From assembly GCA_011524395.1 (NCBI GenBank), contig WTKN01000377.1, positions 7,935-71,934 on the forward strand: DNA of 64,000 nucleotides. The letters are read 5' to 3'. The notes under the pieces are model-generated. The model made no database searches and was not told the origin of the DNA. It worked only from the letters and a program-made list of their open reading frames with translations. A program made the position numbers and the translations under genes. This DNA comes from Moorena sp. SS36440bin_2. Lineage in GTDB: Bacteria > Cyanobacteriota > Cyanobacteriia > Cyanobacteriales > Coleofasciculaceae. Shown one piece after another: positions 31,946 through 46,174 of the stretch; within the stretch, counting starts at the first letter, position 1, and each line of letters begins with the position of its first letter.

Positions 31946-34900
31946 TTGTTAGCTAGATCAATAGTTGCTAAAGCTAGTTTCTGGTGGGAACGCCTTGATA
32001 TCAAGCAATTTGTACCGGAGCTTAATAGCAACGGTGAAGCACAAGTATCACAAAGACTTGAGCGCTGGTGCAATGTGGTAGCTCAGGGAAACTGGGACAA
32101 GTTTCAGCGACGCTTACAGTGGGATGGATTAGATATAGACAAAGTTCGTCCATGCCTAGGTACTGTGCGTTTGGTTGCTGAACAACTACCCAAGTGGGTA
32201 AACACCCTAGCAGAGGTCATGGAAACCGCTAAAGGCTTTCAGCCTCACGATTATCCTGACTTGCCAATTGATCTAGACAATCCTCTTCCCTTTGAAGATC
32301 TACTGCTACCTGTGGTGGTGGTGGCTAGAGCAAAGCTACAGGAAAGGTTCAAGGATTTTGCCTTGCCAGTGGTAGGTCAAGCCAATGCTTTGTTATCTAA
32401 AACAGCCTACCGTTGTCTAGAGCGCACTCTGCTGCAACAAGTAACAACGCTTTGTGCTAAGACACTGAATGCTGAGTTCTCCAAAGCCCGTCCAGGTGGA
32501 TATAGATTACTCAACTTACTTCTACCAGGTCTTGAGGGCAATGGTCAAACGACTTACTATGATGCCTTTGTCGAGCAACACTTGGGAGAAGGTTACCTTA
32601 CCCTTGTCCAAAACTATCCGGTGCTGGGGCGATTGGTTGCCACCTGTATCAACCTTTGGCTAGAGGCAACGGTAGAGTTACTGCAACGGTTGAGCTGGGA
32701 CTATCAAGCCATTGATCAAATGTTTGGTAAAAGCCAAACCTCTGAAGGGGAGCCAGCAACAGCACCATTGAAAGGTCTCGGTCAGGTCACTGATATTAAG
32801 ACAGGGTTATCGGACCCCCACAATGGAGGACGCTCAGTGTTTGTACTCACCTTTGAGTCTGGACTCAAGGTAGTCTACAAACCCAAGGATTTAGGGCTGG
32901 AAGTAGCGTTTAATAATCTGTTGGCTTGGTGCAATCAACACGAAGAACTGCTCAAATTCAAAGTATTACGAGTTCTCAATCAAAGTGGGTATGGCTGGGT
33001 TGAGTATGTGGAACATCAGCCCTGTGAAAATGAGGCAGCGGCGCAACGGTTTTATCAGCGCGCTGGGATGCTATTGTCCTGGCTTTATGCTTTGCGGGGA
33101 ATAGACTGCCACTATGAAAACCTGATTGCCAGTGGTGAGCATTTGGTGTTGGTGGATCTAGAAACTCTGCTTGACCCGGAAGTCAAACTGATAGACAATT
33201 CCCTGGATTCCCAAGAGATGGAATCCACTGCAGGGCAACAATTTTACGATTCTGTCTTGCGGACGGGGTTGTTGCCCCGATGGGATTTTAGTAGCGATCG
33301 CAGCATTGCCTATGACATTAGCGGTTTGGGAAGTATTGAGTCCCAACCTAGCTCTAATAAAGCTCATAAAGCTCGTTGCTGGAAGGCTATCAACACTGAT
33401 GATATGCATCTGGGTTACGATAATATCACCCTACCCAGGTCGAAAAATGTGCCTTACCTTGGTGAGCAGATCCTGTCTCCTAACGACTATGTGGAGCAGC
33501 TGGTTGAGGGGTTTGAGCAGGTGTATCGCTTCGTGATCGCCCAGGGAGAGGCAATGCTTGCTGTTGATGGACCACTAGCAGCCCTGCAAGACCAACCCAT
33601 CCGGTTTATCTTTCGGTCAACCAAAGTGTATCGCACAGTTTTGCAGAAAACCTTGACCCCTGAATTCTGCCAAGATGGAGTTGACTACAGTCTTGAGCTA
33701 GACATCATCAGTCGAGCGTTCCTGGTTGATCAGCAGAAACCAAAAGCTTGGCCGATCTTAGCTGCTGAGTTGCAGGTAATGGCACAACTGGATATTCCAT
33801 ACTTTCAGGGCAACTCTGCTAGTCAGGCTTTACCCCTACCTACCGGAGAAAGTATTCCCCAGGCTTTTAAGCAACCGAGTTATGAGCAGGTGATCACCGA
33901 GCTACAGCAGTTCAGTGAAACAAACCTAGGGCAACAACTCTGTTTGATCCGGCAAGCTCTTTATGCACGGGTGGCACGAAAACCAACTGGAGCAACCGGG
34001 GCATGGGAAGTACAGTCCCTACCACCGCTAACACCGGATCAGTTGATTCAAGAGGCTGATGCGATCGCTAGGGAAATCCAGGCCAAAGCAATTCCAGATC
34101 CAAATGGCTGTGTTAACTGGATTGGGATGGGGTTTGTTTCTAAAGCTGAACGGTTTCAACTACAGCTGCTGGGCAACTCCCTCTACGATGGCAAATGTGG
34201 AATTGCCCTGTTTCTATCAGCATTGGATTGGGTAAGGGGTCGTCAAGAATTTGGTGAATTAGCTTTGCAAGCTTTACAGCCTTTACGAAAGCTAACTCAG
34301 CTGGCTGATACTCGTCAGAGACTGGCGAGAAATTTGGGAATTGGAGGAGCTACCGGAGTTAGTTCTATCATCTATACTTTCACAAAAGTCAGCCAATTCT
34401 TGGGGGATACAACATTACTTGCTGATGCTGAGCTTTTTGTCAAGAGTATTACTGCTGAATTGATTGCCACTGATCAACAACTGGATGTGATGGGAGGAGC
34501 TGCCGGAGCAATCTTGGGTCTGTTATCGTTGTACGAAGCTACTCAGGATCCAGACGTTCTAGAGAAAGCTCAAGCTTGTGCTAACCATTTGTTACAGCAG
34601 CGCGTGAGTATCAAGGGGTCTCCCAAAGCATGGCAAACTCTCAGGGAACAGCCCCTCACGGGCTTCTCCCACGGTGCGGCTGGCATTGCCTATGCTTTGC
34701 TGCGCTTGTATGCTGTGACCCAAGACCATCGTTACCGTGAAGCAGCAGAAGAAGGTATTGCCTACGAACGCAGTGTTTTTTCTGAGAAGGCAGGTAATTG
34801 GCCGGACTTCCGGGAATTCCAGCAGGACAAGGGGCAACCGGGCTTTATGGTGAGTTGGTGTCATGGAGCACCGGGGATTGCCCTAGGACGACTGGGTGGA

Positions 34901-35251
34901 TTGCCCATCCTGGATACGGCAGATATTCAGCAGGACATTGAGGTAGGCTTGCAAAAGACCCAGCAATTTGGCTTACAAGGCATTGACCATTTGTGCTGCG
35001 GGAATTTCGGACGGATTGAGGTTCTGTTGATTGCAGCCGAAGGATTTTCCCGTCCTGATTTACGGCAACTCGCCCTCCAACGAGCCACAAATGTGGTGGC
35101 GAGGGCAAGACGAACAGGAAGTTATCAACTGTTTGACAATTTGCCAAGTTCTGTCTGGAGTCCTGGCTTCTTTCAGGGAACAGCAGGGATTGGTTACGAG
35201 CTGTTGCGTTTAGCTTCTGGTAACCTGCCCTCAGTGTTATTGTGGCAATAA
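31946..35251 (+). CDS. lanM: Class II lanthipeptide synthetase LanM (ProcM-like, CCG type)
   Basis: Dehydratase motifs VYKPKDL, DCHYENLIA, VDLETL, RSTKVY; LanC-like cyclase motifs GFSHGAAG, WCHGAPG, HLCCGNFG. Confidence 0.95.
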   Translation: MLARSIVAKASFWWERLDIKQFVPELNSNGEAQVSQRLERWCNVVAQGNWDKFQRRLQWDGLDIDKVRPCLGTVRLVAEQLPKWVNTLAEVMETAKGFQPHDYPDLPIDLDNPLPFEDLLLPVVVVARAKLQERFKDFALPVVGQANALLSKTAYRCLERTLLQQVTTLCAKTLNAEFSKARPGGYRLLNLLLPGLEGNGQTTYYDAFVEQHLGEGYLTLVQNYPVLGRLVATCINLWLEATVELLQRLSWDYQAIDQMFGKSQTSEGEPATAPLKGLGQVTDIKTGLSDPHNGGRSVFVLTFESGLKVVYKPKDLGLEVAFNNLLAWCNQHEELLKFKVLRVLNQSGYGWVEYVEHQPCENEAAAQRFYQRAGMLLSWLYALRGIDCHYENLIASGEHLVLVDLETLLDPEVKLIDNSLDSQEMESTAGQQFYDSVLRTGLLPRWDFSSDRSIAYDISGLGSIESQPSSNKAHKARCWKAINTDDMHLGYDNITLPRSKNVPYLGEQILSPNDYVEQLVEGFEQVYRFVIAQGEAMLAVDGPLAALQDQPIRFIFRSTKVYRTVLQKTLTPEFCQDGVDYSLELDIISRAFLVDQQKPKAWPILAAELQVMAQLDIPYFQGNSASQALPLPTGESIPQAFKQPSYEQVITELQQFSETNLGQQLCLIRQALYARVARKPTGATGAWEVQSLPPLTPDQLIQEADAIAREIQAKAIPDPNGCVNWIGMGFVSKAERFQLQLLGNSLYDGKCGIALFLSALDWVRGRQEFGELALQALQPLRKLTQLADTRQRLARNLGIGGATGVSSIIYTFTKVSQFLGDTTLLADAELFVKSITAELIATDQQLDVMGGAAGAILGLLSLYEATQDPDVLEKAQACANHLLQQRVSIKGSPKAWQTLREQPLTGFSHGAAGIAYALLRLYAVTQDHRYREAAEEGIAYERSVFSEKAGNWPDFREFQQDKGQPGFMVSWCHGAPGIALGRLGGLPILDTADIQQDIEVGLQKTQQFGLQGIDHLCCGNFGRIEVLLIAAEGFSRPDLRQLALQRATNVVARARRTGSYQLFDNLPSSVWSPGFFQGTAGIGYELLRLASGNLPSVLLWQ

Positions 35252-45070: not shown

Positions 45071-45085
45071 GATGAGGATTGCCTG

Positions 45086-46174
45086 TTGATGGAACCGAAA
45101 ACAGTTGATAACCCGAAAGGGTTTCTGAAAAAGTTATTCGCACAAAAACTAATAACCCAAGCTTGTAATCCCTCTATATTTGAAGTCAATGATTCAGCGA
45201 ACTTAACTGTTAAGTATATTGGTAACGAAAAAAACTGTATCTTGATTTTTGATCAGTTTTTAAAATTTCCTGATCGTGTCAGAAACTATGCTATCAATCA
45301 GGCTCAGTTCAAATCCTATCCAAAAGGTAAATATCCAGGAATAAGGCATCGTCTATATCAGGAAGAAACGGATACAATTATTGATGGTTTAGAAAAGTCA
45401 GTGTTAGAGCATCTTAAGATTCAAATCGATGCTGACTGCACAGCTAATGGCTATTTTAGTTTGGTCACCCTGAAGCCAGAGGAATTAACTTTTGAACAAA
45501 CTATACCCCATTTCGATGCAGTTGTTCCAAATAAAAAAGTCGCTGTGGTTCATTATTTATCTTTACCCGAAATGTGCTGGGGAGGAACAGCCTTTTATCG
45601 ACATAGAGCAACTGGTTTTGAATCGATTTCAGTAAGTCGGTTGCCAGACTATGATGAATCTCAGGCCAAGTTCCATGATCACTATGTTACTGATTCCAAT
45701 GATGACTTTGAATTGGTAGAACTTATTCCAATGAAGTATAACCGACTAGTTGCCTACGGCAGTAATTTGCTGCACAGTGGTTATATAAAACCAGACATGT
45801 TATCATCTGACCCAAGTAAAGGGCGACTCAGTGTTAACCTATTCATTCAGGATAAGATTAAGGTCGAAAATGAGGATGAAATCGACACAATTGAGCTAGA
45901 TACGATTCTTAGCAAAAAGGATGGAATAACGGCTGCAGCGTGTCGAATTATTTATCAAGAAGATTGGCAAGATATGGTTGGTATTATCTTTCCTGAAAAT
46001 CAGGTATGGGGACCAAAAAAAATCGAACCATCCCTTCGCTTTGTGATTGATAATCATCAATTTGCTGTTAAGTCTTTTCCCGGTACACTGAGTGACAAGG
46101 CCAAACTGGTTTTAGCTCGCCGTCTAGTCAAAGAAGGCTTACTAACTATTTTTGATGATGGGAAGACTGGGTAA
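45086..46174 (+). CDS. DUF6445-like 2OG-Fe(II) oxygenase with C-terminal winged-helix-like extension
   Basis: YPGIR, IPHFD, GGTAFYRH, YNRLVAY..LLHSG, GRLSVNLF; tail FPGTLSDKAKLVLARRLVKEGLL. Confidence 0.75.
   Translation: MMEPKTVDNPKGFLKKLFAQKLITQACNPSIFEVNDSANLTVKYIGNEKNCILIFDQFLKFPDRVRNYAINQAQFKSYPKGKYPGIRHRLYQEETDTIIDGLEKSVLEHLKIQIDADCTANGYFSLVTLKPEELTFEQTIPHFDAVVPNKKVAVVHYLSLPEMCWGGTAFYRHRATGFESISVSRLPDYDESQAKFHDHYVTDSNDDFELVELIPMKYNRLVAYGSNLLHSGYIKPDMLSSDPSKGRLSVNLFIQDKIKVENEDEIDTIELDTILSKKDGITAAACRIIYQEDWQDMVGIIFPENQVWGPKKIEPSLRFVIDNHQFAVKSFPGTLSDKAKLVLARRLVKEGLLTIFDDGKTG

Follow-up and report, generated by a model that had tools for sequence, protein, structure and literature searches.

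The 64,000-nucleotide stretch of contig WTKN01000377.1 from Moorena sp. SS36440bin_2 that was analyzed here (the window) carries, at positions 31946-46174, a single gene for a short peptide precursor surrounded by putative tailoring enzymes, which raises the question of what this system is and how much of its chemistry has already been described. The findings of this analysis indicated, with a probability of about 0.9, that the locus is a second Moorena genome's orthologue of the mpp cluster published for Moorena producens PAL-8-15-08-1 (PAL), a cluster for a peptide that is made by the ribosome and modified after translation (RiPP) for which four enzyme activities have been published. As published, the mpp biosynthetic gene cluster comprises the precursor MppE, the LanM enzyme MppM, the halogenase MppI, two “arginases” (MppA and MppB), the prenyltransferase MppC, a “terpene synthase” (MppD), the oxygenase MppG and a peptidase, MppP (Saha et al., Org Lett 2025, PMC11791876). 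A first-pass annotation of the window had cautioned that part of the system might be known, possibly from Moorena; this caution was right and understated, as a literature check showed that the whole cluster has been published and named and that the literature covers four of its enzymes as well as the precursor.

Gene content was established from a listing of open reading frames and from translation, Pfam and NCBIfam scans of the window, and the names mppA and mppB were assigned here by gene order. Comparison of window positions 27-54 kb with the PAL region by blastn gave collinear blocks at 96-98% nucleotide identity, and each cluster protein aligned over its full length to PAL at 93-98% identity (tblastn), so that the locus is, by these alignments, an orthologue carried by another Moorena genome and not by the PAL strain itself. 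The genome is a separate species representative, 99.87% complete, and MppE was found in one of the six other Moorena species representatives searched, the carrier being the PAL genome. Gene order, orientation, the core ACWRWSG and the catalytic residues were the same in both copies, and all nine cluster genes were full-length. The published residue numbers fitted the window proteins (C79, W80, W82, S83, L66 and L71 of MppE; K73 of MppI), and the catalytic residues named in the papers were present (MppI K73; MppG H141, D143 and H229), as was the leader-contact residue F340 of MppC. In the database, BJP34_00875 of M. producens PAL-8-15-08-1 came closest to the 716-aa protein encoded here, with 95% identity. 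The two copies differed at three of the 84 positions of MppE, in the leader (compared with the PAL genomic copy), at residue 336 of MppC (Leu in the window, Trp in PAL), at residue 17 of MppG (Phe in the window, Leu in PAL), and in a DUF7005/HExxH gene beside mppG that the window lacks.

The precursor gene (38452-38706, + strand; Nif11, TIGR03798), the mppE orthologue, encodes 84 amino acids, with a 77-aa Nif11 leader ending in ELEAVAGG, a GG cleavage site and the core ACWRWSG. It was 96% identical to the PAL genomic copy, with an identical core; the core and the L(X)4L motif of leader residues L66 and L71 agreed with PMC11791876, and the core also agreed with Table S1 of PMC12715784. As in PAL, the ribosome would make leader and core as one peptide for the LanM enzyme to act on. 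The latter (31946-35251, + strand), the mppM orthologue, is a class II lanthionine synthetase with the LanM dehydratase (DUF4135) and LanC-like domains of that class above their curated cut-offs (TIGR03897 at 1002.5 bits against a cut-off of 304, PF13575 at 439 bits and PF05147 at 211 bits), and it was 95.9% identical in amino acids to PAL MppM. PAL MppM makes a DL-lanthionine between Cys79 and Ser83 (PMC11791876), and its contacts with the leader have been analyzed (PMC12537861). Both residues were present in the window core, where the enzyme would dehydrate Ser83 and Cys79 would add to it, giving one DL-lanthionine ring; ring formation was demonstrated for the PAL orthologue alone (PMC11791876).

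The mppI orthologue (43736-45070, + strand) encodes a flavin-dependent tryptophan halogenase that was 98% identical to PAL MppI and matched PF04820 (Trp_halogenase) at 170.4 bits, against a cut-off of 21, with GGGTAG (GxGxxG) near its N-terminus and the catalytic Lys73. The canonical WxWxIP motif was not found in the window protein, which has GWIFTIP instead; PAL MppI is nevertheless an active brominase (PMC11791876). The PAL enzyme, discovered with SrpI as the mining query, is an obligate brominase that depends on the leader, acts at C5 of Trp80 and prefers the cyclized peptide (PMC11791876), and the window enzyme would likewise brominate the indole of Trp80 at C5 on a ring-closed, leader-bearing peptide. 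Flavin-dependent tryptophan halogenation of a RiPP is common to MppI, SrpI and MibH. However, MppI prefers a ring-closed lanthipeptide that still bears its leader and engages the whole of that leader, whereas MibH halogenates only after leader removal and for SrpI the L(X)4L leader segment suffices (PMC11791876).

The 397-aa mppC orthologue (39101-40294, + strand) had no Pfam match, and its fold was predicted with AlphaFold from an alignment of 30 homologues (predicted local distance difference test score, pLDDT, 88; predicted template modeling score 0.87). The best Foldseek matches of the model were IptA, PriB and 5-DMATS (probability 1.00, TM-scores 0.47-0.54), by which the protein is predicted to fold as an ABBA indole prenyltransferase, in agreement with the published assignment of MppC. 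PAL MppC, to which it was 95.9% identical, is a leader-dependent ABBA prenyltransferase that attaches geranyl to C5 of Trp82 once the ring has closed (Wakeel et al., JACS 2025, PMC12715784), and the window enzyme would transfer geranyl to the same position of the indole. With numbering from the GTG codon at 39101, the PAL copy has W336 and F340, as published, and the window has L336 and F340 (region 40100-40120). As the leader contact is carried by F340, with W336 minor (PMC12715784), the residues found here fit the reported minor role of W336.

The mppG orthologue (45086-46174, + strand; DUF6445, 194 bits) encodes a 2-oxoglutarate (2OG)/Fe(II) hydroxylase with a C-terminal RiPP recognition element, and was 94.8% identical to PAL MppG. 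Its likely start is the ATG at 45089, from which the HxD...H triad falls on H141, D143 and H229. These are the ligands His141, Asp143 and His229 reported for PAL MppG, a 2OG/Fe enzyme with the same C-terminal element that β-hydroxylates both tryptophans (bioRxiv 10.64898/2026.10.04.756588); the window enzyme would hydroxylate C-β of both tryptophans in the same way. The substituted residue 17 lies within window positions 45086-45140, and in PAL L17 is one of two leader-contact leucines that were tested together (bioRxiv 10.64898/2026.10.04.756588).

Among the enzymes known only by prediction, the 326-aa mppB orthologue (37191-38171, + strand; UPF0489) matched OspR (PDB 8BRP) at E = 1e-65 and retained intact the three peptide-arginase motifs of pfam12640, as DEHSD, EEHNEAF and LDIDLDYFSC; the three motifs that define peptide arginases are listed in PMC12703449. 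It is likely that MppB hydrolyzes Arg81 to ornithine, this residue being the one arginine of the core. The landornamide (osp) system of Kamptonema sp. PCC 6506 likewise combines a cyanobacterial LanM with a pfam12640 peptide arginase and a long-leader precursor. However, the window leader is of the Nif11 type and the core has one Arg, whereas the osp leader is of the NHLP type and its core has several; the osp pathway is also without a halogenase, a prenyltransferase and a FAD/cyclase protein.

The assignments of the first-pass annotation thus came out largely right. It had expected a Cys/Ser ring from the LanM enzyme, tryptophan as the target of the halogenase and of a putative prenyltransferase, and hydroxylation by 2OG-Fe(II) oxygenases, and PAL MppM, MppI (bromination of the first Trp at C5), MppC (geranylation of the second Trp at C5) and MppG (C-β of both Trp) do these things (PMC11791876; PMC12715784; bioRxiv 10.64898/2026.10.04.756588). 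The intact arginase-fold protein that it described is MppB, and the fusion of an FAD-dependent oxidoreductase with a terpene cyclase is present as well, with its Amino_oxidase and SQHop_cyclase_C domains; every gene that it named was recovered, at the positions it had given, in the ORF calls and the Pfam and NCBIfam scans. Of the up to seven tailoring activities that it had counted, four are biochemically established in PAL, and terpene cyclization and the conversion of Arg to ornithine are predictions. Its claim to novelty was narrowed, as the halogenase and the DUF6445 oxygenase had already been described, and was left standing for the FAD/cyclase fusion and for a fusion of arginase and 2OG oxygenase.

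Several points weigh against this reading of the locus and its predicted steps. The evidence for activity comes from PAL orthologues, and the cluster of this strain is known from its sequence alone. The final product of PAL is described as cryptic in PMC11791876, PMC12715784 and bioRxiv 10.64898/2026.10.04.756588. No assays of MppA, MppB, MppD or a further 356-aa protein of the cluster were found in the papers examined, the first three having a single predictive mention in PMC11791876. MppB also fell short of the curated cut-off of NF052474 (FlmR/OhkR), scoring 285.6 bits where 350 is needed (MppA scored 174.5), and by these scores MppA and MppB belong to the wider arginase family, not to the FlmR/OhkR subfamily.

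What is possibly new in the cluster begins with the 716-aa mppD orthologue (40291-42441, − strand), in which a domain resembling FAD-dependent amine oxidases (Amino_oxidase, 66 bits) is fused to one resembling class II terpene cyclases (SQHop_cyclase_C, 30.7 bits against a cut-off of 26.1). The C-terminal domain matched the monodomain class II cyclase 8PAK at E = 2e-13, with 8PAJ and squalene-hopene cyclase also among its eight matches and no chain named MstE among them, and the class II α/α barrel with QW-type repeats was present; nothing relevant on 8PAK or 8PAJ turned up in the literature. T495 and D498 were invariant, and S499 nearly so, across 35 MppD homologues. Oxidation coupled to ring closure is our leading guess for this enzyme: the flavin domain would oxidize the geranyl chain on Trp82, and the cyclase-like barrel, whose EDSA motif would offer one invariant Asp in place of DxDD, would close a ring.

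The genomic surroundings of related genes, examined at three loci, bear on this guess. The family of such fusions extends over several phyla. No MppD-type fusion was found in 300 other sampled cyanobacterial genomes, and beyond near-identical Moorena copies the named relatives were 33-49% identical and non-cyanobacterial (Sorangium, Sporomusa, Anaerolineae, Desulfuromonadaceae), most others being metagenome proteins. In Sporomusa malonica (locus L008:10001-14158), the MppD-like gene is followed directly by a gene for a 347-aa prenyltransferase of the MppC family (hhalign 99.95%, E = 1e-38), an adjacency that supports MppD action on prenylated Trp, and in Sorangium the MppD-like gene adjoins a UbiA prenyltransferase. 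Taken with the fold, these neighborhoods suggest that MppD may act on the prenyl chain, to which we would give slightly less than even odds. Further along, the Sporomusa locus encodes two NHLP precursors, with Trp opening each core right after the GG and VACA closing it, and then two B12-dependent radical S-adenosylmethionine (SAM) enzymes and a C39 exporter; no description of this cluster was found.

Other observations count against MppD as an oxidative cyclase of the prenyl chain. The canonical DxDD(TA) motif is not found in MppD, in which TAEDSA is aligned with DADSTA of 8PAK. In the family profile the flavin domain was nearest to L-amino-acid and amine oxidases (E = 1e-25) and then to protoporphyrinogen oxidase, which places it closer to amine oxidases than to known epoxidases or CrtI-type desaturases, and an amine such as Orn81 may be its substrate. 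In a metagenomic locus (L009), the MppD-like gene is accompanied by DUF7005, by a LanM-type dehydratase domain and by a radical SAM enzyme; the candidate cores of this locus showed no Trp, and a gene of 353 aa, the one candidate tested there, was rejected as an MppC-type prenyltransferase.

The main rival follows from the same flavin domain, as MppD could be an amine oxidase for the ornithine that MppB produces, turning the δ-amine into an imine or aldehyde for condensation inside the peptide, with the barrel merely holding the geranyl chain or the macrocycle. The best solved-structure matches of the N-terminal domain, L-amino-acid and amine oxidases at E = 1e-25 to 1e-15, favor this, as does the presence in the same cluster of an arginase that generates a primary amine. 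However, the MppD-like genes of Sporomusa and Sorangium have prenyltransferase neighbors, whereas the genes called within 10 kb of them include no UPF0489 arginase, and the invariance of Asp498 in the 35 homologues argues for a catalytic rather than a passive barrel. We regard the amine oxidase as improbable and retain oxidation coupled to cyclization of the geranyl chain as the preferred reading of MppD.

For a RiPP-terpenoid hybrid with a cyclized prenyl group, which the first-pass annotation had put forward as possible, NctPC (Hubrich et al., Chem 2024) provides a precedent, as it is summarized in a review (PMC13290415). In both systems an ABBA prenyltransferase acts on a peptide Trp; in NctPC, by that summary, a class II-type cyclase then acts on the isoprenoid, whereas for MppD the cyclization is predicted. 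The same summary gives NctPC as a fusion of prenyltransferase and cyclase with a C20 donor and an MstE-like cyclase domain. In mpp, by contrast, the prenyltransferase is separate and prefers C10, and the partner fused to the cyclase-like domain resembles FAD-dependent amine oxidases.

The window departs from PAL in gene content at what may be the step of leader removal. In PAL, a gene for a 389-aa DUF7005 protein (544 bits; L020:456-1625, − strand) with the HExxH motif HECTH lies between mppG and the TerB gene, and it is probably the “mppP peptidase” of PMC11791876. Taking mppP to be this gene, the window is without it: no remnant of DUF7005 was found in the window by tblastn, and no copy elsewhere in the genome. 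Its position is occupied by a repeat-rich spacer of 529 bp (46175-46703), seen as a synteny gap in blastn and filled with short tandem repeats. A literature search on DUF7005 found nothing. Elsewhere, DUF7005 genes were observed adjacent to an MppC-like gene (L005), about 4 kb from another (L001), and directly beside the MppD-like gene of L009.

The loss could mean that the cluster here is a decaying or silent copy, with no mature product formed once the DUF7005/HExxH gene was gone. The absence of both a remnant and a second copy in a genome that is 99.87% complete speaks for this, as does the fact that the PAL product, called cryptic in all three mpp papers, has never been detected. However, all nine other genes are full-length and 93-98% identical to PAL, with their catalytic residues intact, and an HExxH protein of a RiPP cluster may be an oxygenase and not a peptidase (PMC12636437). 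Moreover, ten transporters with a C39 peptidase domain are encoded elsewhere in the genome and could process the GG site instead. We give a silent cluster poor prospects. For the functional cluster that we favor, cleavage at GG in trans by one of the genomic C39 transporters is proposed because this strain is without the DUF7005/HExxH gene of PAL. On contigs C42 and C194 of the same genome, additional Nif11-leader precursor genes, at least six in all, stand in tandem sets, and one set on C42 adjoins a C39 transporter; these loci could share processing machinery with the cluster.

The 536-aa mppA orthologue (35516-37126, + strand) combines an arginase-fold domain (UPF0489, 51 bits), a QLD-repeat linker and an FlmC-like 2OG-Fe(II) oxygenase domain (2OG-FeII_Oxy_3, 29 bits; NF052475, 65 bits). 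A 9-bp tandem repeat of 4.7 copies at 36483-36524 encodes the linker between the two halves. The N-terminal domain was 54% identical to MppB and matched OspR 8BRP at E = 1e-40, with the motifs DKYSD, EDHNEAS and LDVVLDYF. Relative to 8BRP, DEHSD has become DKYSD and DIDID has become DVVLD, so that two of the six metal ligands are lost (the His of DXHXD to Tyr and an Asp of the DIDLD motif to Val), both positions counting among the six Mn ligands (PMC12703449). By these motifs one of the two arginase-fold proteins, MppB, is intact, and MppA is degenerate though it keeps the fold family.

A search of 1.84 billion representative proteins for the arginase-2OG architecture of MppA yielded one other cluster only (P0190, 50% identical), in which the arginase motifs were more decayed than in MppA and the oxygenase half was well conserved. 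This pairing of arginase decay with a conserved oxygenase makes a binding module without catalytic function the best reading of MppA's N-terminal half. It would bind the precursor or MppB and so place the 2OG oxygenase on or near residue 81, a targeting role that we offer tentatively and hold to be rather doubtful; pairing of MppA with MppB is suggested because OspR-type arginases are dimeric (PMC12703449). A working second arginase, with two such enzymes active on a single Arg and the 2OG domain independent, is very improbable even though PMC11791876 annotates mppA and mppB both as arginases and the domain still matches OspR, as the His-to-Tyr and Asp-to-Val changes strike Mn ligands, the sole other such fusion has lost further ligands, and ACWRWSG holds one Arg only. 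In the literature examined, no fused pseudo-arginase-oxygenase of the MppA type is described for osp. Oxidation-coupled cyclization of a peptide-bound geranyl group by MppD, distinct from the protonation-only route of NctPC, and the dead-arginase targeting module of MppA, possibly as a heterodimer with MppB, might each represent new chemistry, although we consider this somewhat unlikely.

Fusions and neighbors of other kinds were observed around MppC-like prenyltransferases. Two proteins, P0323 (553 aa) and P0023 (591 aa), fuse an MppC-like prenyltransferase domain to a 2OG-Fe(II) oxygenase domain, and in P0323 the MppC-like domain (hhalign 93.8%) is joined to an oxygenase domain of the MppA type; the MppC homologues P0027 and P0034 are fused to methyltransferase domains instead. 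In other LanM/Nif11 loci the MppC-like prenyltransferase is accompanied by a protein of about 600 aa with no Pfam or PDB sequence match, directly after it at L001:11106-12881 and L003:11142-12959, and about 3.8 kb downstream of it at L005:14959-16758. Compared with MppD, this neighbor gave one short motif-level match near the cyclase motif (in one pairwise comparison, E = 8e-4). In L003, a 2OG oxygenase of 208 aa lies next to the MppC-like prenyltransferases; it had no detectable similarity to the MppA oxygenase domain and was set aside as evidence linking MppA to the prenyltransferase.

The remaining gene of the cluster (42426-43496, − strand), which the first-pass annotation did not list, encodes a 356-aa protein with no Pfam, NCBIfam or PDB sequence match, a family profile included, and no catalytic signature. 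Its model (pLDDT 89) was an all-α-helical TPR-like solenoid, with weak Foldseek matches to the TPR proteins kinesin light chain, NprR and LapB (E of 0.015 or higher). The homologues were cyanobacterial and lay in chemically unrelated RiPP clusters, one type with radical SAM, one with NHLP, LanM and a C1 peptidase, and one with a kinase and HopA1, and the protein was unrelated to the neighbors of the MppD-like genes in L008 and L009. Readings as a peptidase or a prenyltransferase were rejected, given no PDB sequence match and weak TPR fold matches alone. It is probably a general accessory rather than a tailoring enzyme, and it would serve as a non-catalytic peptide-binding protein.

The limits given to the cluster in the first-pass annotation were reasonable. 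Upstream, the cluster is flanked by a ribosomal protein operon and a KefB-type antiporter; on the downstream side come a TerB protein, a subunit of an NHLP/Nif11-type bacteriocin export ATP-binding cassette transporter (48410-51112, + strand; TIGR03797 at 1014 bits, above cut-off) without a C39 peptidase domain, and housekeeping genes. The three transcription blocks it had implied agreed with the gene orientations, but a scan for consensus promoters and terminators found no more sites than in shuffled sequence (32 against 30.1 and 12 against 14.1, respectively). As the counts match those of shuffled sequence, the transcription units rest on gene orientation alone.

With the cluster already published, and one laboratory working through its enzymes in turn, the discovery value of this locus is small; what it still offers lies in comparison. 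A second natural copy reveals which of the published contact residues vary, and it indicates that the remaining genes can stay intact without the DUF7005/HExxH gene. In Sporomusa and Sorangium, the gene contexts lend independent genomic support to the geranylated peptide as the first substrate to consider for MppD, and the arginase half of MppA, rare and progressively decayed, looks like a pseudo-enzyme targeting domain.

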